DNA of 47,558 nt from a virus. The position numbers and the translations under genes are program-made. Numbering within the stretch: position 1 is the first letter of the stretch; each line of letters starts with the position of its first letter. The stretch lies in UHGV virus genome UHGV-1376407. One strand, 5' to 3'. The notes under the pieces are model-generated. The model did not search any database. It was not told where the DNA came from and was given only the letters and a program-made list of their open reading frames with translations. Below are positions 13,476 through 45,233 of the stretch, piece by piece.

Positions 13476-13505
13476 TTGACAGGCGTAGCAAGACTGACGT
13501 AGATT
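13476..13505 (+). promoter_or_regulatory. box promoter (TTGACA -35, 18-bp spacer, TAGATT -10; contains TGACGTAGATTGA)
   Basis: TTGACA 13476-81, TAGATT 13500-05. Upstream of the + MTase cassette. Confidence 0.55.
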
Positions 13506-13535
13506 GAAAGCATAAGGTGATTGAGGGTTTAACAT

Positions 13536-13670
13536 ATGAACGAGACTGATGCTGATTTGAGATTTTACACAGACCTTTACATTGACCAGGGTTACACCTA
13601 TGAGGAGGCCCGCGTAAAGGCGATTTTGTTGCTGGCTAAAATTGGCGTAGTGGTGGAGGATAAGAGATGA
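13536..13670 (+). CDS. small hypothetical protein (44 aa), translationally coupled to the MTase gene
   Basis: ATG with GAGGG RBS. Stop overlaps the MTase start as ATGA. Not in the ORF track (<60 aa). Confidence 0.35.
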   Translation: MNETDADLRFYTDLYIDQGYTYEEARVKAILLLAKIGVVVEDKR

Positions 13671-14353
13671 TTATATGGTCACTTTTTGACGGGTCTGGAA
13701 TCATGGTGAAGCCGTGGGCGGACGCGGGCCATAAGTGTTATTGCTTCAATTATGACTCAGCAAACCACGGAAGTTACGAAGAAATTAGAGTTTTGCATAA
13801 AAACATTGAGTACGTTAACTGCTGGATTGATTTATTTTTTGAGAATTATGCTGCAAGCATTGGGCTTGGTGCTCCAGATATTATTTTTGCTTTCCCTGAT
13901 TGCACTGCTATGGCAGGGTCTGGCGCAAAGCATGGTAACAAGTCGCTAGATACCTTGAATCTCGCAAAGATGATTCAGCGTATTGGCAGAGACTATAATG
14001 CCAGGTGGATGATTGAAAACCCTGTAGGAAAACTGTCAACACTTTTCAGAAAGCCAGACCATTATTTTGACCCGTATGAATATGGTGGTTATATGACTGG
14101 AGAGGAGGGCGCTTTTCATCCCCGCATGCCAGCGCGTGATGCTTACACCAAAAGAACATGCCTGTGGGTTGGCGGTGGATTTGTCATGCCAGACAAAAAA
14201 CCAGTTCCTCACATTGGTAAATTTTGGGGGTGGGCATATCTTGGTGGCAAATCTCAAAGGACGAAACAGCTTCGCTCATTGACTCCAAGAGGGTTCGCCA
14301 TAGCTGTGTACGAGGCAAACAAGCCATGGTGGACTCATCATGATTTGAGGTGA
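13667..14353 (+). CDS. DNA methyltransferase-like protein with C5-cytosine MTase motifs I, IV and VI (short, 228 aa)
   Basis: Motif I LFDGSG, motif IV FPDC...AG, motif VI MIENPVG. Own promoter and terminator. Confidence 0.5.
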   Translation: MIIWSLFDGSGIMVKPWADAGHKCYCFNYDSANHGSYEEIRVLHKNIEYVNCWIDLFFENYAASIGLGAPDIIFAFPDCTAMAGSGAKHGNKSLDTLNLAKMIQRIGRDYNARWMIENPVGKLSTLFRKPDHYFDPYEYGGYMTGEEGAFHPRMPARDAYTKRTCLWVGGGFVMPDKKPVPHIGKFWGWAYLGGKSQRTKQLRSLTPRGFAIAVYEANKPWWTHHDLR

Positions 14354-14662: not shown

Positions 14663-14695
14663 AAAAAATAAACCCCCTTTCGGGGGTTTTGTTTT
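14663..14695. terminator. bidirectional rho-independent terminator (AACCCCC-TTTC-GGGGGTT with flanking A/T runs)
   Basis: Strong GC hairpin between convergent genes (14628 + end, 14694 - end). Confidence 0.8.
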
Positions 14696-15449
14696 ATGCA
14701 GTAACGGTGACAACGCACTTAGTCGAGTCAACGTAATCCGGGCTGGTCGCCGAATCCATCACGCGGCAGAAGTACGTACCGGCATCACCAGCAGCGGCGG
14801 TTGCCTTGGTGAAAGTATCAGTGGTTGCGCCACTAATCGGGGCGGTGCCTTTGTACCATTGATAGGCATAAGGCTCAACACCACCAGCCGCAGCAACCGG
14901 GCCAAGCGTCAGCGTTCCGCCAGTCGCAACGCTCTTGGTCGCGGCGATATCGGTAGCAATCGTCAGGTCTTCGATGCTGGAAACGTCAACGGTAGAGCCA
15001 TCATACGGCTTGAACTCAACAGAGCCGGTGATGATGTCGTTGGTTCCGCCGTCATAACTCAGCGCAGTGATGTTGCAGTAAGCCACAACAACAGTGTTAC
15101 CGGTGGTCTGGCGAACCCAAACAGACGGCTGACGACGCGCTTTAACTTCGGTGACAAAGTATTTGATGAGGTTATGTACGCCATACTCATCGGCTTTGTC
15201 AGCCTTACGCACCTCGAAGTCGCCTGAAATGGTCAGGTCAGCGGTCGTTACCAGAGTAGCAACGAAGCCATCGCCATCATCAGCCTCTGAGGTGGTGGTG
15301 CTTGGGCTGAAGTCGACGCCTTTTGAGGTCATGGGAGCAAAAAACTTCCAGTCTTCCTCTGCTGGCACAGCATCCCAGCAGCCATCAGCCAGCTCAATGA
15401 GCGACTGGCGACCTGTGATGATGCCGTTATCATTTGCACAAATAGCCAT
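14694..15449 (-). CDS. major tail (tube) protein with C-terminal Ig-like (Big_2-type) domain
   Basis: Position upstream of chaperone/tape-measure genes. C-terminal ~90 aa Ig-like domain (YAYQWYKG...GTYFCRV...CVVTVTA), typical of V-like tail tube proteins. Confidence 0.55.
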   Translation of the reverse strand: MAICANDNGIITGRQSLIELADGCWDAVPAEEDWKFFAPMTSKGVDFSPSTTTSEADDGDGFVATLVTTADLTISGDFEVRKADKADEYGVHNLIKYFVTEVKARRQPSVWVRQTTGNTVVVAYCNITALSYDGGTNDIITGSVEFKPYDGSTVDVSSIEDLTIATDIAATKSVATGGTLTLGPVAAAGGVEPYAYQWYKGTAPISGATTDTFTKATAAAGDAGTYFCRVMDSATSPDYVDSTKCVVTVTA

Positions 15450-15494
15450 GTTTAGAATCCTCTGTGTTTAGCTAAACAATCGCATTATATCATG

Positions 15495-15523
15495 TTGACA
15501 GGTTTTGATTGGTGATGTAGATT
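15495..15523 (+). promoter_or_regulatory. box promoter (TTGACA -35, 17-bp spacer, TAGATT -10; TGATGTAGATTTTGA)
   Basis: Exact consensus spacing, upstream of the homing-endonuclease-like gene. Confidence 0.55.
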
Positions 15524-15609
15524 TTGAGTGTGCAGCTAGTACGGCCAGACGAAAAGCGATTGGTTATCGCCTGCTGCATCACTTCAAACCACCTTTAACC
15601 GAGGACTCA

Positions 15610-16491
15610 ATGATGCGCAAGCTAACTACCGAAGAGTTTATTGCCAAAGCTAAAGCGGTTCATGGCGATAAGTATGATTACTCAGTAGCCATATATGTAA
15701 GCGCTCACACCAAAATATCTTTAATATGCAAATCTCATGGTAAATTTCTCCAGACCCCAAACAGTCACCTAAGCGGATGTGGCTGCCCAGCGTGCGCCAA
15801 AAAGCAAAGGCCAATATCAAATCTAATGGGTGTTAATGAGTTCGTTATGGAATCAAGAAAAATACATGGTGATAGATATGATTATTCAGAAGTTAAATAT
15901 AAGAAATCAATAGATAAAGTAAAGATAAGGTGCATGCTACACGGACATTTTTATCAGTCACCAAACAACCACTTGGCAGGTCATGGATGCCCAGAGTGTT
16001 CAAGGAACAAAAAAAGAAACTCACTAGAGTTCATAAAAAAGGCGCATGAAGTTCACGGGGCCGACAAATACATTTACAGTCTTGTCGACTATAAAAACGC
16101 AAACACAAAAGTTTTGATAATTTGCAACAATCATGGGGTCTTTGAGCAGACACCAATCAAACATACCCTTGGTGGAGGATGTCCTGGTTGCGCAAAGTAT
16201 GGATTCGATGAGTCAAAGGTTGGCTTTGTCTACTTCCTGATTAGCGAGTTTGGGATAAAGGTTGGGATATCAAACAACCCATCCCAGCGGCTACAAAAAC
16301 TCAAATCAGCAACCCCGTTCGATTTTCATCTTATCGCAAAAGTAAAAACTACTGGCGACGAGGCCATGCGCAAGGAAAAATATTATCATCACAAATATGA
16401 ATCCGCCTCTCTTACTGGATTTGACGGCGCTACCGAGTGGTTGCGATTCTGTCCAGAATTGATGAATGAGATCATGAATGAGAAGAATTAA
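15610..16491 (+). CDS. free-standing homing-endonuclease-like protein: three tandem ~65-aa zinc-ribbon repeats plus C-terminal T5orf172/GIY-YIG-like domain
   Basis: Three repeats of the pattern EFI.KA..VHGDKYDYS...HG.F.Q.P..HL.G.GCP.C. C-terminal VGFVYFLISEFGIKVGISNNPSQRLQKL matches the T5orf172 signature. AT-rich island on the opposite strand of the structural genes. Start set at ATG 15610 (RBS AGGA). Confidence 0.55.
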   Translation: MMRKLTTEEFIAKAKAVHGDKYDYSVAIYVSAHTKISLICKSHGKFLQTPNSHLSGCGCPACAKKQRPISNLMGVNEFVMESRKIHGDRYDYSEVKYKKSIDKVKIRCMLHGHFYQSPNNHLAGHGCPECSRNKKRNSLEFIKKAHEVHGADKYIYSLVDYKNANTKVLIICNNHGVFEQTPIKHTLGGGCPGCAKYGFDESKVGFVYFLISEFGIKVGISNNPSQRLQKLKSATPFDFHLIAKVKTTGDEAMRKEKYYHHKYESASLTGFDGATEWLRFCPELMNEIMNEKN

Positions 16492-18560: not shown

Positions 18561-18589
18561 TTGACGTAGATTGAGGGTGTAGCTATAGT
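18561..18589 (+). promoter_or_regulatory. box promoter (TTGACG -35, 17-bp spacer, TATAGT -10), followed by a second TGACGTAGAAAC box
   Basis: TTGACGTAGATTGAGGGTGTAGCTATAGT. Heads the 8-gene + accessory operon. Confidence 0.6.
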
Positions 18590-18611
18590 GATGACGTAGA
18601 AACAACAATAA

Positions 18612-18938
18612 ATGTTAGAGGTGATGAAGATGAATGAGTTCAAAGGATACCCCGCCCCGTGGGACATGAGAATCAAAGATGGGATGGCAATCTTTGATTT
18701 TAACCATAAAGGTGAAGTTCCACACTACCGATTTGCTGAATGCGTTGTGTCACTAGTTACCGACGATGAGCCGCAAGATTATCTAATGGCAAACGCGAAT
18801 TTAATTTCTGCCGCTCCTGAGATGCTGGAAGCACTGCAAAATATGGTCGAATCATACCAATATGAGGCATCACCTGATAACCCTACGCTCCTGCAAGCGC
18901 GCGCCGCAATCACCAAAGCGCTCGGAGAATCCCAATGA
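18612..18938 (+). CDS. hypothetical protein, paralog of 53..367 (ANANLISAAPEMLEAL core)
   Basis: Shared N-terminus, core motif and leader sequence with the first ORF of the window. Confidence 0.6.
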   Translation: MLEVMKMNEFKGYPAPWDMRIKDGMAIFDFNHKGEVPHYRFAECVVSLVTDDEPQDYLMANANLISAAPEMLEALQNMVESYQYEASPDNPTLLQARAAITKALGESQ

Positions 18939-19051
18939 TCCGCCACGAAATCCGAAAAGAAGACCTGAAGGCGTGGGATAAGTTCAAAATCAAGCTGGCA
19001 TTAATCGTTATCGGTGTTGCCATTGCTAGTGTATTCGCCTTATCAAAGTGA
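18935..19051 (+). CDS. small membrane protein (38 aa, C-terminal TM helix), ATGA-coupled
   Basis: ATG overlaps the upstream stop. Hydrophobic LALIVIGVAIASVFAL. Not in the ORF track. Confidence 0.35.
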   Translation: MIRHEIRKEDLKAWDKFKIKLALIVIGVAIASVFALSK

Positions 19052-19085: not shown

Positions 19086-19730
19086 ATGCATGATTTTATT
19101 AGCCAGCAATCCGGCGAGGTGAAATACCGTGAACCATTTTTTGTGCCTGTTGACGAACTGGTTGTGAGTGAGCCGCATCCAGAAAAAGAGGTTGTGGAAT
19201 TTTTTGTTAGAGAAATGCAGTCCGGCATGAGAATGCCTCCTATTGAGGTTAAGCGACTGGATGATGGGAAGTTTGCCGTCGTCATAGGCAAGGCCAGAGC
19301 CATTGCTTCAATGATGGTTGAATCAAGAGCAGATGAGGAGAAACTTGTACGGTGCAGGATGTATGAGTACAAAAACCTTATGCCAATTTTCAACTCAATA
19401 CAGCGCAGCTCTGGTGATGTTAATGGTTTGTTTTTTAGAATTTGGGGATATAAATTTCTAAAAATGACGGGCATGACTGGCGAGGAGATATCAAGAAAAT
19501 GTAAGAGGAATATGGATGACCTCATCAAATGCATGATTGTAGATTCTATGCCGTGTCACATTAAAAAACTTATCTTGAACAGCACTCTGTCACCATCTCT
19601 GGCGGTGGTCGTTGTGAAAAAGTTTGGTGCGCATGAAGCACATAGGGCCATAACTAAAGCATCAAATGACCCTTCCTTATGGGAAGGAAAGAGAATTACC
19701 CCAAGAATGATAATGAATCATATTGATTAA
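19086..19730 (+). CDS. ParB/Srx N-terminal-domain protein (ParB-like nuclease/CTPase fold)
   Basis: ParB box PPIEVKRLDDGKFAVVIGKARAIA. Start placed at ATG 19086 with GGAGGTG RBS (track ORF starts at 19014). AT-rich. Confidence 0.5.
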   Translation: MHDFISQQSGEVKYREPFFVPVDELVVSEPHPEKEVVEFFVREMQSGMRMPPIEVKRLDDGKFAVVIGKARAIASMMVESRADEEKLVRCRMYEYKNLMPIFNSIQRSSGDVNGLFFRIWGYKFLKMTGMTGEEISRKCKRNMDDLIKCMIVDSMPCHIKKLILNSTLSPSLAVVVVKKFGAHEAHRAITKASNDPSLWEGKRITPRMIMNHID

Positions 19731-19750
19731 ACATAACTGGAATTCATAAG

Positions 19751-20566
19751 ATGACATCTCTCGGAAAAATTTACTCAGACAAAGAAACTCGCGGCGGAAT
19801 CGTGGTCAACAAAGGTTATCAGGTTCCTGTCGATCAGCTTTACCTTGAACCTGGATACAACATCCGCGAAGCCGATGAGCAGCACGTTGAATACTTCGCG
19901 CAGTGCTGGGAATCAGGCCAGCCAATCCCGGCGTTAACTGTTATTCCTGATGCCGACGGAAAGCGCATCAAGATTCTTGACGGCCAGCATCGTTATCTTG
20001 GCGCATTGCGTGCCATTGAGCGAGGAGTGCCAATTGCGCGAATTGAGTGCAAAGACTTCACCGGCGATGAGGCGGATAAAATCGCCTTCATGGTGTCTTC
20101 AAGTCAGGGCAGGCAACTCGACCCGCTTGAGCGTGCAAAGGCTTATGTGCGCCTCAAAGGGTTCGGATGGACGAATGAAGAAATCGCCAAAAAAGTAGGC
20201 CGCTCAGTTTCTGATGTGCAGATGCACCTGTCACTTGGTGATGTGCCTGATGCCATCAAGCAGCGAATCAACGCGGGCCAAATCAGCTATGCCAACGCCG
20301 TTGCAGTGGCGCGCGAGCATGGCGATGATGCCGTTAACGTTATTGATGCTGCCGTTGAGGAAGCGAAAGCGCAGGGCAAGGATAAGGTGACGGCGAAAAC
20401 GCTCAAGGCCAAAAAAGTTAAGCCGATTGACCGCCTGATTTGGCTGCTGAAAGGGGCAGACCATATGGTTGTCACTGAGGGTCATGTGGCACAGGAGACA
20501 GAAGAATTTTTGCGCCTTCCTTCTGCGGAGTTGAGTGAAGTGCTGGCGATTCTGGAGAAGCTATGA
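19751..20566 (+). CDS. ParB-like protein with DGQHR motif and ParB-type HTH (DndB/DGQHR-family-like)
   Basis: KILDGQHRYLGALRA replaces the GERRxRA box. HTH GWTNEEIAKKVGRSVSDVQMHLSL. Confidence 0.65.
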   Translation: MTSLGKIYSDKETRGGIVVNKGYQVPVDQLYLEPGYNIREADEQHVEYFAQCWESGQPIPALTVIPDADGKRIKILDGQHRYLGALRAIERGVPIARIECKDFTGDEADKIAFMVSSSQGRQLDPLERAKAYVRLKGFGWTNEEIAKKVGRSVSDVQMHLSLGDVPDAIKQRINAGQISYANAVAVAREHGDDAVNVIDAAVEEAKAQGKDKVTAKTLKAKKVKPIDRLIWLLKGADHMVVTEGHVAQETEEFLRLPSAELSEVLAILEKL

Positions 20567-20772
20567 TGAGTACATCACTGCTGTCTTTGCTAAGAAATGG
20601 TGAATATAGCATCAGAGAAATGGCAAAAATTTTAGGAATATCAAAACATCGTGTTTCGTGGTTCATTGCGGAACTTGAGCGCCGTAAATGGGTAGAGGTT
20701 ACAAGGTGCGCGATATGGCTTCACGATGGAACACGATCAAATAAACCAAATAAATACAGAGTTAAATTATGA
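20563..20772 (+). CDS. small winged-helix/HTH DNA-binding protein
   Basis: YSIREMAKILGISKHRVSWFIAELERRKWVEV. ATGATGA coupling to the upstream gene. Confidence 0.5.
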   Translation: MMSTSLLSLLRNGEYSIREMAKILGISKHRVSWFIAELERRKWVEVTRCAIWLHDGTRSNKPNKYRVKL

Positions 20773-20942
20773 CAGCAGAACAATTCATAGAGAAAAACCT
20801 GCGCGAAAAACTGCCAGGCATCGACAACGCGGCCATAGAGGCTGCAATTACCCACTACAGGCGCAACCAGACTGAAAAGAAGGGCAAGATTTTCGATGAA
20901 TGCATGAAGGTTGCAAAACAACACATGGTGAAGGTGAAGTGA
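20769..20942 (+). CDS. small hypothetical protein (57 aa), coupled on both sides (ATGA, TGATG)
   Basis: Fills the gap between the HTH gene and the clamp-like gene with overlapping start/stop codons. Not in the ORF track. Confidence 0.35.
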   Translation: MTAEQFIEKNLREKLPGIDNAAIEAAITHYRRNQTEKKGKIFDECMKVAKQHMVKVK

Positions 20943-21478
20943 TGAAATTAAAAGTTAGCAAGTTACTTCTTGAAGGCGCGCTGATGTTCCAGGCCAAACA
21001 TGATGTGCGTTACTACCTGAATGGCATTTGCTTTATGCCTGATGGTCGCGTTGCTGCTACTGACAGTCATCGCGCCATGATTGCCAGTAAGCACGAAAAC
21101 AAGATAAAAAGTAACGTCATCGTGTCGATAAGCAAGTCGCCAACTAAGCGCTATTCCTATGCGCTACTGGACACTGAAACAAATATTGTCACTTACCATG
21201 ACGAACATGAAATGATGGTTGGTGCGGGCATTTGTTCTGAAATTGATGGCAATTACCCTGATATTGATCGTGTCATTCCTAAGCAGACCGCACCAGCAGA
21301 GCAGATTGGCTTTAATGCCAAATATCTTGCAGATGTTGAGAAGCTGGCGAAACTGTTTAACCCGAAATTTGAGGCGGTTCGCTTTGAACTGAATGGCAAC
21401 ACCAGCGCCGCCGTCGCAAATATCAGCGCACCAACTGGCGAGACTGCCAAAGTTATTGTTATGCCAATGAGGATTTAG
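20942..21478 (+). CDS. truncated DNA polymerase III beta sliding-clamp (DnaN)-like protein: domain II plus C-terminal half of domain III, no domain I
   Basis: HDVRYYLNGICF...VAATDSHRAMI, YPDIDRVIPK, IGFNAKYLADV and C-terminal VIVMPMRI. These align with E. coli DnaN QDVRYYLNGMLF...VATDGHRLAV, FPDYRRVLPK, IGFNVSYVLDV and VVMPMRL. Start set at ATG 20942 (TGATG coupling). Confidence 0.65.
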   Translation: MKLKVSKLLLEGALMFQAKHDVRYYLNGICFMPDGRVAATDSHRAMIASKHENKIKSNVIVSISKSPTKRYSYALLDTETNIVTYHDEHEMMVGAGICSEIDGNYPDIDRVIPKQTAPAEQIGFNAKYLADVEKLAKLFNPKFEAVRFELNGNTSAAVANISAPTGETAKVIVMPMRI

Positions 21479-21771
21479 TGATGAAAAAGAGAGATGGTGA
21501 AATTAACATTCTGCACAATGATTCTTCTTGTGGGATGCTTATTATGAGAGGAGATTACACAGAAAGCCAAATACTTGATGCGGCAATTAATAGTGGAATC
21601 ATTTCTGATGATGAAAGAAAAGGATGGGAAAACCTTGGTGAGTATGGCAGATATTATCAATCATGGTTTAAAGCAGTTCCTGATGGAAGCGGGCAATTCT
21701 CAACATTTCATCATGCAGTTGATAAAAAACTAAGAGGCGCTTATTTTGCCTCTGTCATAGAGCGCTTTTAA
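21478..21771 (+). CDS. hypothetical protein (last gene of + accessory operon)
   Basis: GTG/ATG start overlapping the upstream stop. AT-rich. Followed by a terminator. Confidence 0.4.
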   Translation: MMKKRDGEINILHNDSSCGMLIMRGDYTESQILDAAINSGIISDDERKGWENLGEYGRYYQSWFKAVPDGSGQFSTFHHAVDKKLRGAYFASVIERF

Positions 21772-21798
21772 AAAAAGCCCCTTTCGGGGCTTTTCTTT
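21771..21798. terminator. bidirectional rho-independent terminator (GCCCC-TTTC-GGGGC, A-run upstream, T-run downstream)
   Basis: Between convergent genes ending at 21771 (+) and 21801 (-). Confidence 0.8.
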
Positions 21799-27847: not shown

Positions 27848-27943
27848 TCCACACCACCTCTCATCATTATGGTACAATCTACAACACAGAGTATTGACTA
27901 ATTGACGTAGATTCGTCAAGATGATTTTCACAGGAGAGCGACA
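27848..27943. promoter_or_regulatory. divergent early promoter region with box elements on both strands (TTGACTAATTGACGTAGATTCGTCAAGATGATTTT on +; TGTTGTAGATTGTACCATAAT on -)
   Basis: TTGACG 27902-07 plus TAGATT 27908-13 on +. CATAAT and TAGATT hexamers on - at 27866-81. Confidence 0.45.
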
Positions 27944-30555: not shown

Positions 30556-30591
30556 TTGACGTAGATTGAATCGTAAGCGATGATGTAGATA
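30556..30591 (+). promoter_or_regulatory. box promoter TTGACGTAGATTGAATCGTAAGCGATGATGTAGATA (two boxes)
   Basis: TTGACG 30556-61. Second box TGATGTAGATA. Precedes RBS AGGAGAG and the 30613 gene. Confidence 0.5.
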
Positions 30592-36313: not shown

Positions 36314-36342
36314 CAATGCGCCTTGACGTAGATTCTAGCATG
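36314..36342 (+). promoter_or_regulatory. box promoter (TTGACG -35, 17 bp, TAGATT -10); a third upstream box TGATGTAGTT at 36292-36301
   Basis: TTGACGTAGATTCTAGCATGGCGTAGATT. Confidence 0.6.
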
Positions 36343-36377
36343 GCGTAGATTAAAATGAAACCTCTAGGAGAAATCTT

Positions 36378-36681: not shown

Positions 36682-36710
36682 TTGACGTGGATTCGTGGTT
36701 GATGTAGATT
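36682..36710 (+). promoter_or_regulatory. box promoter (TTGACG -35, 17 bp, TAGATT -10) with AT-rich UP-like region
   Basis: TTGACGTGGATTCGTGGTTGATGTAGATT. Confidence 0.6.
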
Positions 36711-36730
36711 GTAGTCATTGAGGTGGCGCG

Positions 36731-41071: not shown

Positions 41072-41086
41072 CGTTGCTAAACCGGT

Positions 41087-41515: not shown

Positions 41516-41544
41516 ACTATACGATGGCGCTCAATCTACGTCAA
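41516..41544 (-). promoter_or_regulatory. box promoter on - strand (TTGACG -35, 17 bp, TATAGT -10; TTGACGTAGATTGAGCGCCATCGTATAGT)
   Basis: Same architecture as the promoter at 18561; drives the leftward operon. Confidence 0.6.
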
Positions 41545-45159: not shown

Positions 45160-45179
45160 AATTTAACCTTGATTATTGC

Positions 45180-45212
45180 CGTAGATTCAGTCTACTATTG
45201 TGACGTAGATTG
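45180..45212 (+). promoter_or_regulatory. box elements (GCCGTAGATTCAG ... TGACGTAGATTGA) in the primase/helicase divergent region
   Basis: Two CGTAGATT boxes 24 bp apart. Confidence 0.4.
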
Positions 45213-45233
45213 AGCAACACAAAGGTGGATGAA

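Follow-up and report, generated by a model that had tools for sequence, protein, structure and literature searches.

The viral genome UHGV-1376407 (47,558 nucleotides, the whole of which is called the window below) carries two adjacent genes for ParB-like proteins, here referred to as gene 1 and gene 2:

19086..19730, + strand: gene 1, a short ParB-like paralogue of 214 amino acids, with an N-terminal ParB fold and a helix-turn-helix (HTH) domain, without a C-terminal domain, and with IGKAR as box II
19751..20566, + strand: gene 2, a full-length orphan ParB-family protein of 271 amino acids, with the ParB fold at residues ~20-120, the HTH at 122-204 and a C-terminal domain at 225-271

Both open reading frames (ORFs) are real as described in a first-pass annotation, and domain, PHROG and structure-model evidence agreed that their products are ParB-like. 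The window is the genome of a virulent-type Klebsiella siphophage of the KpV2811 / KlebP_265 / pIS4-A group, with ~85-92% nucleotide identity in the ParB region to KpV2811, vB_Kpn_ZC2, 6991 and KlebP_265; more distant kin are Aeromonas phage pIS4-A and Shuimuvirus/Skatevirus-like phages of Salmonella and Escherichia coli. Genes 1 and 2 occupy the third and fourth positions in a + strand operon of eight genes, which extends from a sigma-70 promoter (18561-18589) to a bidirectional terminator (21773-21794) and is placed between tail and head gene blocks of opposite orientation.

The product of gene 2 matched PHROG 1033 ('ParB-like partition protein') with an E value of 6e-86, and its lineage occurs in ~190 related virulent siphophages. 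The search with profile hidden Markov models suggested in the first-pass annotation gave a divided answer: gene 2 scored above the cutoff with the Pfam models HTH_ParB (PF17762; 42.3 bits, cutoff 22.6) and KorB (PF08535; 27.7 bits, cutoff 22.3), but did not match ParB_N (PF02195) and remained below the cutoff of the DGQHR model, TIGR03187. With the NCBIfam ParB model TIGR00180 it reached 43 bits (E 4e-11), which is below the cutoff of 58.45, and with the NCBIfam Noc model an E value of 2.5e-8. When the single sequence was used in phmmer, the best match was to Spo0J of Thermus (1vz0; E 1.7e-11, residues 41-193), followed by Caulobacter and Myxococcus ParB, KorB and Noc. In Foldseek, the AlphaFold2 (AF2) model of gene 2 (predicted local distance difference test score, pLDDT, 85.7) matched best KorB (8qa9) and parS-bound Caulobacter ParB (6t1f), with target-normalised template modelling scores of 0.71-0.72 over ~205 columns, and further matches included Noc, Spo0J and sulfiredoxin. 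Sulfiredoxin, SbnI and PadC superposed on the N-terminal domain only. Thus, the ParB N-terminal (ParB/Srx, 'CTPase') fold was recognised both in the alignment to 1vz0 and in the superposition of the model over ~200 residues, in support of the fold that had been assigned at first pass. Residues 225-271 are predicted by AF2 to form a helix-strand-strand-helix alpha/beta C-terminal domain, and BFVD contained 52 structural relatives of gene 2 at E<=0.001.

The gene 2 orthologues of other Klebsiella phages are 97-98.5% identical to that of the window, and those of Salmonella and E. coli phages ~81% identical. The ratio of nonsynonymous to synonymous substitution rates (dN/dS), calculated for the window and the most distant carrier of gene 1, whose gene 2 is 98% identical, was 0.026, indicating strong purifying selection. 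Clearly, gene 2 has the full layout of a ParB protein, namely a nucleotide-binding fold, an HTH and a C-terminal domain, and is strongly conserved in its lineage; it is an ordinary representative, already annotated, of the orphan ParB-like HTH proteins that are widespread in phages.

Residues 74-88 of gene 2 read KILDGQHRYLGALRA and include, at 77-81, the pentapeptide DGQHR, which is not present in gene 1. In the first-pass annotation this pentapeptide had been taken as the signature of DndB. Besides the pentapeptide itself, a weak local similarity to TIGR03187 (E 0.0023 over 46 residues around the motif) and a marginal match of one distant relative to the DndB domain PF14072 (E 0.0087) would speak for such a relationship. 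However, the TIGR03187 score of gene 2 was 17.7 bits against a cutoff of 58.85, and gene 2 itself gave no match to PF14072 in Pfam at E<=1. In the alignment to solved ParBs (HMMER) and in the family alignment, DGQHRY corresponds to (A)GERRW, i.e., to box II, SSSQG(K/R) of the gene 2 family to ENxQR of box III, and GYNIR to the xQPR segment of box I. The phosphate loop of box II, GxxR, is represented by GQHR at residues 78-81 of gene 2 and by GKAR at residues 68-71 of gene 1, and its G and R were invariant in both family alignments examined. The Q of the pentapeptide varied: among 31 family members, 16 had DGQHR, 14 DGHHR and 1 DGSHR, and the five canonical ParBs in that alignment had AGERR. 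All 36 aligned proteins matched TIGR00180 and also TIGR04285 (Noc), and 12 of the 36 matched TIGR03187 at E<=0.01, the best with an E value of 0.0012. The signature of the DGQHR domain includes, in addition, a QR pair as well as the motif FxxxN (PMC4619093); the sole QR of gene 2 is at residue 171 and its sole FxxxN at residue 138, both inside the HTH domain. A PADLOC scan gave no matches, and no dnd, ssp or dpd genes were found in the window or in its annotated relatives. As the alignment with box II, the variation of the Q, the preference for ParB models and the misplacement of QR and FxxxN all point the same way, the pentapeptide is a lineage variant (DG[Q/H]HR) of the superfamily-wide GxxR loop. 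Membership of gene 2 in the DndB/DGQHR family was rejected on these grounds, together with the model scores and the absence of a dnd context.

The canonical motifs GERRxR and ENxxR and the Q of box I were not found in gene 2, which has DGQHRYL, SSSQG and GYNIR instead. Judging from these alignments, the residues that a canonical ParB needs for the hydrolysis of cytidine triphosphate (CTP), i.e., the box I Q and the box III E-N-x-x-R, are replaced. The idea that the two genes encode CTP-dependent DNA clamps is weakened by this replacement, even though the clamp-type domain architecture is kept. A divergent box III combined with a kept GxxR is usual in orphan ParBs, the ligands of which are CTP, adenosine triphosphate (ATP) or guanosine triphosphate (GTP) (PMC12704722).

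The less ordinary element of the pair is gene 1, which is rare, rapidly diverging and always paired with gene 2. Its ATG has a strong ribosome-binding site, GGAGGTGA, 6 nucleotides upstream; a longer version starting from a GTG at 19014 was considered unlikely. No sequence match to gene 1 was found in Pfam, NCBIfam, PADLOC or PDB. In BLASTP it aligned with gene 2 (26% identity over 178 amino acids, E 8e-13), and it matched PHROG 1033 with an E value of 6e-14. Its HTH region aligns with that of gene 2 despite the lack of a Pfam match, and its AF2 model (pLDDT 84.9) matched the same ParB structures as that of gene 2. Since the gene 1 segment VVIGKARAIA occupies, in the alignments, the place of DGQHRYLGA in gene 2 and of the canonical GERRWRA, it is a degenerate box II in which only GxxR is kept. 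Thus, of the ParB/Srx boxes claimed for both genes, that of gene 2 holds as a box II followed by a ParB-type HTH, and that of gene 1 in this reduced form only. Gene 1 is also devoid of the box I segment, and its product does not extend beyond the HTH domain.

A profile built from gene 1 only retrieved just 10 proteins among 1.84 billion representatives, including gene-2-type proteins of 265-269 amino acids, and HTH_ParB was present in several of the retrieved proteins that were checked. Gene 1 is represented by 3 clusters in 5.8 billion proteins, and a DNA search of 50,697 phage records gave no match. Its best matches among phage proteins were VLCpiS13d gp38 and RCIP0103_00041, with 28% identity, and the three proteins form a short clade of ~215 amino acids, in which neither a C-terminal domain nor a box I segment is present and box II has the form [IL]G[KN]AR. 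Gene 1 is closer to the VLCpiS13d/RCIP0103 clade (E 3e-19) than to gene 2 orthologues (E ~4e-6), and therefore it has not arisen from gene 2 in recent times; an origin by recent tandem duplication was rejected. Clearly, gene 1 is a paralogue of old origin that has diverged, and its recognition helix differs from that of gene 2.

The carriers of gene 1 are the window and two Logan assemblies, and in all three it is located immediately upstream of a gene 2 orthologue. None of the 79 IMG/VR loci carrying gene 2 has a second ParB-like gene. The gene 1 products of the window and of the most distant carrier are 64% identical, as compared with 98% for the adjacent gene 2, and the dN/dS of gene 1 is 0.28-0.32 (0.32 with the most distant carrier). 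In locus L005 (a contig of SRR32829893), whose gene 1 is 97% identical to that of the window, the gene 2 orthologue (5667-6482) has a stop at the first codon and was called as a product of 254 amino acids without the first 17 residues.

A role of gene 1 or gene 2 in segregation is unlikely, because the phage belongs to a virulent group, a ParA-binding motif, (L/F/I)G(K/R)G(L/F/I), is absent from both proteins, and enterobacterial hosts are without a chromosomal ParABS system (PMC12704722). This agrees with the first-pass annotation, which had doubted a segregation role and had noted the virulent look of the phage and the lack of a partition ATPase. Neither the window nor any of 85 related loci contained an ORF of at least 120 amino acids with KGGxGK[ST], the deviant Walker A motif of the ParA type. 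Each window ORF of at least 90 amino acids was matched to an annotated KpV2811 gene or scanned, and no ParA, integrase or CI repressor was found among them. KlebP_265, whose ParB-like protein is 97.8% identical to gene 2, was characterised as lytic (PMC11769527).

Two cultured phages provide natural variants. In VLCpiS13a (locus L089, 7618-7800) only the last 47 codons of gene 2 are left, and there is no other ParB-like gene; the remnant is joined to a new start located immediately after the promoter. VLCpiS13d (locus L002, 2947-3597) has lost gene 2 and the downstream genes, and carries a short gene-1-type ParB-like gene. As VLCpiS13a was cultured without a ParB-like gene, such a gene is dispensable for plaque formation.

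A search for a parS-like site among the perfect palindromes, inverted and direct repeats and over-represented k-mers of the window yielded just a promoter box; a site might be single, imperfect or on host DNA. The most over-represented word of the window, TGACGTAGATTGA, occurred 17 times at <=3 mismatches against 4.25 expected, and none of 100 shuffles reached 17. The first six bases of the box constitute the -35 hexamer of early-module promoters, and the box frequently occurs in pairs 10-30 base pairs (bp) apart. The promoter of the ParB module is one of these:

18561..18589, + strand: sigma-70-type promoter of the module (TTGACG, 17-nucleotide spacer, TATAGT; 10 of 12 consensus matches)
18591..18604, + strand: second, imperfect copy of the box, ATGACGTAGAAACA, 30 nucleotides downstream of the first copy
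Sites of the box TTGACGTAGATTGA: 20-33, 13494-13507, 18561-18574, 18591-18604, 27902-27915, 30556-30569, 36323-36353, 36682-36712, 41531-41544 (- strand) and 45176-45213

The -35 hexamer of the module promoter is formed by the first bases of TTGACGTAGATTGA, and the pair of boxes at this promoter is kept in relatives L001-L005. The box stands in front of most early modules, is conserved in relatives and is not palindromic. As it is retained in VLCpiS13a, it does not depend on a ParB-like protein, and TGACGTAGATTGA was rejected as a strict ParB site. The first-pass suggestion that the two proteins regulate through the repeated box lost ground for the same reason, namely that the box stayed at the promoters of VLCpiS13a when the ParB-like gene was lost. 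It is also kept in VLCpiS13d, which is without gene 2.

Two 14-bp palindromes sharing the half-site GTTTAG, at 15465 and 41077, were considered as parS and rejected. The one at 15465 is present in 38 loci of the Klebsiella group, including VLCpiS13d, which has no gene 2, and was not found in the searched Salmonella-group loci carrying gene 2, some of which end short of the region; the one at 41077 was found in KpV2811 only. The region 15450-15478 contains the perfect 14-bp palindrome TGTTTAGCTAAACA with a third copy of GTTTAG 16 nucleotides away. This palindrome is part of the 5' leader of the gene for the major tail protein (14694..15449, - strand), just upstream of its ribosome-binding site, and may be a translational or late-transcription control element.

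The remaining parts of the operon are as follows:

18612..18938, + strand: first gene of the operon, 108 amino acids, PHROG 1273, function unknown, a paralogue of window gene 53..367
18935..19051, + strand: predicted membrane protein of 38 amino acids, homologue of KpV2811 gp31, found in 41 loci
20563..20772, + strand: winged-HTH (MarR/HTH_24-like) gene of 69 amino acids, whose ATG overlaps the stop of gene 2 (ATGA)
20769..20942, + strand: conserved gene of 57 amino acids, function unknown, present in 72 of 80 loci, without a Pfam match
20900..21478, + strand: DNA polymerase III beta clamp-like protein of 192 amino acids, PHROG 3007, present in 55 of 80 loci
21478..21771, + strand: last gene of the operon, 97 amino acids, PHROG 28696, function unknown (ORF call and PHROG match)
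21773..21794: bidirectional intrinsic terminator with a 9-bp GC-rich stem that closes the module, no strand assigned

A small membrane gene of the gp31 type is located directly upstream of the ParB-like gene in relatives. The genes at 53-367 and 18612-18938 are paralogues, with a 50-nucleotide stretch that is 78% identical, and both come first after a promoter of the box type; their identity to KpV2811 gp30 is 41% and 57%, respectively. Pfam PF27050 (Phage_P22_Y8K6) was found in the orthologues of gene 18612-18938 from related loci.

The position directly after gene 2 is a hypervariable slot, in which the start of the next gene nearly always lies on the stop of gene 2 (ATGA). The order downstream is the variable gene, the gene of 57 amino acids and the beta-clamp-like gene. 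Across 79 relatives, the slot is occupied by at least 15 unrelated gene families, among them a C5 cytosine methyltransferase (9/79; PF00145, E 1.8e-22) and an N6/N4 methyltransferase (4/79; PF01555, E 5.6e-32); other occupants are an HNH endonuclease, small cysteine-rich proteins and small proteins without a Pfam match, and a winged-HTH gene, as in the window, is present in 3 of 80 loci. KpV2811 has gene 2 together with a C5 methyltransferase. The trio of ParB-like, clamp-like and cytosine methyltransferase genes recurs in the distant Pseudomonas phage D14E, with identities of 32% for the ParB-like and 28% for the clamp-like protein, and in Sashavirus Solent a C5 methylase gene is close to the ParB-like gene. 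Fusions of PF01555 with the ParB fold are enriched in phages, where this domain is one of the most frequent fusion partners of that fold (PMC12704722), and phage ParB homologues activate a thymine dioxygenase on double-stranded DNA (PMC13229309). An attempt to detect methyltransferase-fused relatives with a profile of the N-terminal domain only was uninformative, as it returned only fragments of the same family and weak PDB matches. The window itself encodes, in a separate early module at 13667-14353, a protein of 228 amino acids assigned to PHROG 757 ('DNA methyltransferase'), which has no Pfam match and is unrelated to the methyltransferases beside the ParB-like gene in relatives.

The protein encoded at 20900-21478 gave weak Pfam matches to domains 2 and 3 of DNA polymerase III beta and is 28% identical to a D14E protein annotated as 'DNA pol III beta central domain'. 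Its public label, 'RusA-like Holliday junction resolvase', looks wrong. No DNA polymerase gene was found in the window or in KpV2811.

Elsewhere in the window, a gene inserted between those of the tail (15505-16491; PHROG 681, 'endonuclease') encodes a product of 328 amino acids in which DUF4379 zinc-finger, CapR and T5orf172/MUG113 (GIY-YIG-like) domains were recognised. A tblastn comparison with the KpV2811 sequence examined gave no match, and the product resembles a homing endonuclease. In its recombination module the window departs from KpV2811: a protein of 346 amino acids (1347-2387), AAA_24/Sak4-like and assigned to PHROG 1366, is encoded where KpV2811 has an Erf-like annealing protein, and the match is confined to the last 37 residues.

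When compared with known systems, gene 2 is nearest to the PHROG 1033 proteins of other virulent enterobacterial siphophages (KpV2811 gp32, IME207 gp51 and that of KlebP_265), which occupy the same position in the module; the window differs from these phages in the additional short paralogue upstream, an arrangement present in only two other public assemblies. Like gene 2, KorB of plasmid RK2, a CTP-dependent sliding clamp and global repressor, is an orphan ParB with no ParA role and with the same order of domains. However, the two are ~20% identical, KorB has the canonical CTPase motifs GERR and ENxxR where gene 2 has DGQHR and SSSQG, and for the palindromic operators of KorB no counterpart was found. 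Chromosomal ParB/Spo0J and Noc gave the best sequence matches and have in common with gene 2 the N-terminal fold and the HTH, but gene 2 scores below the TIGR00180 cutoff, and no ParA-binding motif, ParA or parS was found. DndB/DGQHR proteins share with gene 2 the ParB/Srx superfamily and the box II pentapeptide, and the ParB-type HTH is a feature of gene 2. In 5mYOX-ParB (PMC13229309) and in fusions of the ParB fold with methyltransferases (PMC12704722), the ParB fold is coupled to a DNA-modifying enzyme, as in 13 of 79 gene 2 relatives; 5mYOX-ParBs are without a DNA-binding domain, whereas gene 2 has one, and in the window there is no methyltransferase beside gene 2.

We propose that gene 2 encodes a dimeric DNA binder with a nucleoside triphosphate (NTP) switch, which would form an accessory platform on phage DNA and have gene 1 as its modulator. 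Resting on domain architecture, selection and gene neighbourhood, this proposal has in our estimate about an even chance of being correct. Gene 2 would bind DNA as a dimer via the HTH, with the N-terminal domain acting as an NTP-controlled switch, and nucleotide hydrolysis would be unlikely, because the Q of box I and the E and N of box III are replaced. It would act on phage DNA early in infection in an accessory capacity, in the manner of KorB or Noc and not as a centromere protein, and would most likely mark or organise this DNA for other DNA transactions, notably those of the DNA methyltransferases that recur in the slot among relatives. Gene 1 would most likely modulate gene 2, either by heterodimerisation through the N-terminal domains or by competition for DNA, or else would bind a different site. 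A bolder form of the proposal would make gene 2 a modular platform for DNA loading and the slot overlapping its stop a plug-in for interchangeable DNA-modifying or anti-restriction genes, with gene 1 capping or redirecting the platform or serving as a decoy for host ParB-fold immunity proteins; it seems to us clearly unlikely. If true, the pair would constitute an asymmetric switch of two ParBs, of a kind not described before, in a virulent phage.

Several observations weigh against the platform proposal. The N-terminal domain of gene 2 gave no match to PF02195 at E<=1, and used alone as a profile it was barely recognisable as ParB (E 0.039 to Spo0J). The C-terminal domain did not match PF23552 in Pfam and may be read as a dimerisation domain by analogy only. 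The nucleotide specificity of a ParB fold cannot be predicted from sequence or by AlphaFold3 (PMC12704722). Gene-2-type and canonical ParBs made up most of the alignment from which the model of gene 1 was built, so the fold of this model is partly there by construction. No repeated palindrome was found in the window by the site search described above, and the box is kept at six promoters of VLCpiS13a, which has no ParB-like gene. In the window and in 66 of the 79 relatives, gene 2 has been kept with no methyltransferase gene beside it, so help to methyltransferases cannot be its sole role. Finally, no functional study of the PHROG 1033-type family was found in the literature, in which papers on phage 'ParB-like' proteins just give the annotation.

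Instead of forming a platform, gene 2 might be a regulator of the KorB type that occupies phage operators and represses early promoters or, by VirB-like anti-silencing, de-represses them, with gene 1 or the winged-HTH protein of 69 amino acids as a partner, like KorA or TrbA for KorB. The above-cutoff KorB domain and the best structural match, 8qa9, would fit this possibility, as would the location of the module behind an early sigma-70 promoter with two box copies, TGACGTAGA, the excess of the box in the window, and the translational coupling of the small HTH gene to gene 2; moreover, the guanine-cytosine (GC) content of the phage is ~48% and Klebsiella DNA is GC-richer (~57%), which makes H-NS silencing conceivable. 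We nevertheless consider a KorB-type role rather unlikely, as the box is non-palindromic and kept at all VLCpiS13a promoters without a ParB-like gene and in VLCpiS13d without gene 2, the candidate winged-HTH partner is present in only 3/80 loci, and no KorB-like palindromic operators were found in the window. A counter-defence or decoy function, in which gene 1, and perhaps gene 2, would target ParB-fold immunity proteins (GmrSD/DUF262, DndB, DpdB) or sequester a host factor, is in our opinion unlikely. It would explain the accessory position and extreme rarity of gene 1, its dN/dS being about ten times that of gene 2, the hypervariable slots with methyltransferases and many small unknown genes, and the dispensability of the ParB-like gene in nature; however, a dN/dS of 0.3 still means purifying selection, positive selection is not directly indicated, both proteins have an intact HTH, and no similarity to a known anti-defence protein and no PADLOC match were found.

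It is also conceivable, although very unlikely, that the ParB-like and the beta-clamp-like protein together recruit the host DNA polymerase III or organise replicating DNA. A primase and a helicase are encoded by the phage, no DNA polymerase gene was found, and the ParB-like and clamp-like genes occur together in 55/80 loci and in D14E. Against this possibility, VLCpiS13a has the clamp-like gene without a ParB-like gene, clamp-like genes are widespread in other phage groups, and the ParB-like gene of Xanthomonas phage FoX3 has no clamp-like neighbour. Extremely improbable, finally, is a DndB/DGQHR-like regulator or antagonist of host Dnd/Ssp phosphorothioation or Dpd 7-deazaguanine systems. 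The pentapeptide and the two marginal model matches that favour it are outweighed by the scores given above, by the change of the Q to H in 14/31 family members, by the lack of QR and FxxxN at corresponding positions and of dnd/dpd genes nearby, and by the best matches in sequence and in structure, every one of which is a ParB, KorB or Noc protein with an HTH.

For motif annotation, these results carry a caution that the DGQHR pentapeptide is insufficient for a DndB-like call. A survey of 2025 showed that orphan ParB-fold proteins encoded on mobile elements bind CTP, ATP or GTP, and that their roles are largely unknown (PMC12704722). The PHROG 1033-type family was probably missed by this survey, because it scores below the PF02195 and TIGR00180 cutoffs used there. 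Mobile elements commonly encode orphan proteins of the ParB fold, and no representative from a virulent enterobacterial siphophage has been characterised. The natural variants described here, i.e., phages that have gene 2 by itself, both genes, the short form only or neither, constitute a tractable test case, to which close relatives with or without a methyltransferase gene coupled to gene 2 can be added.

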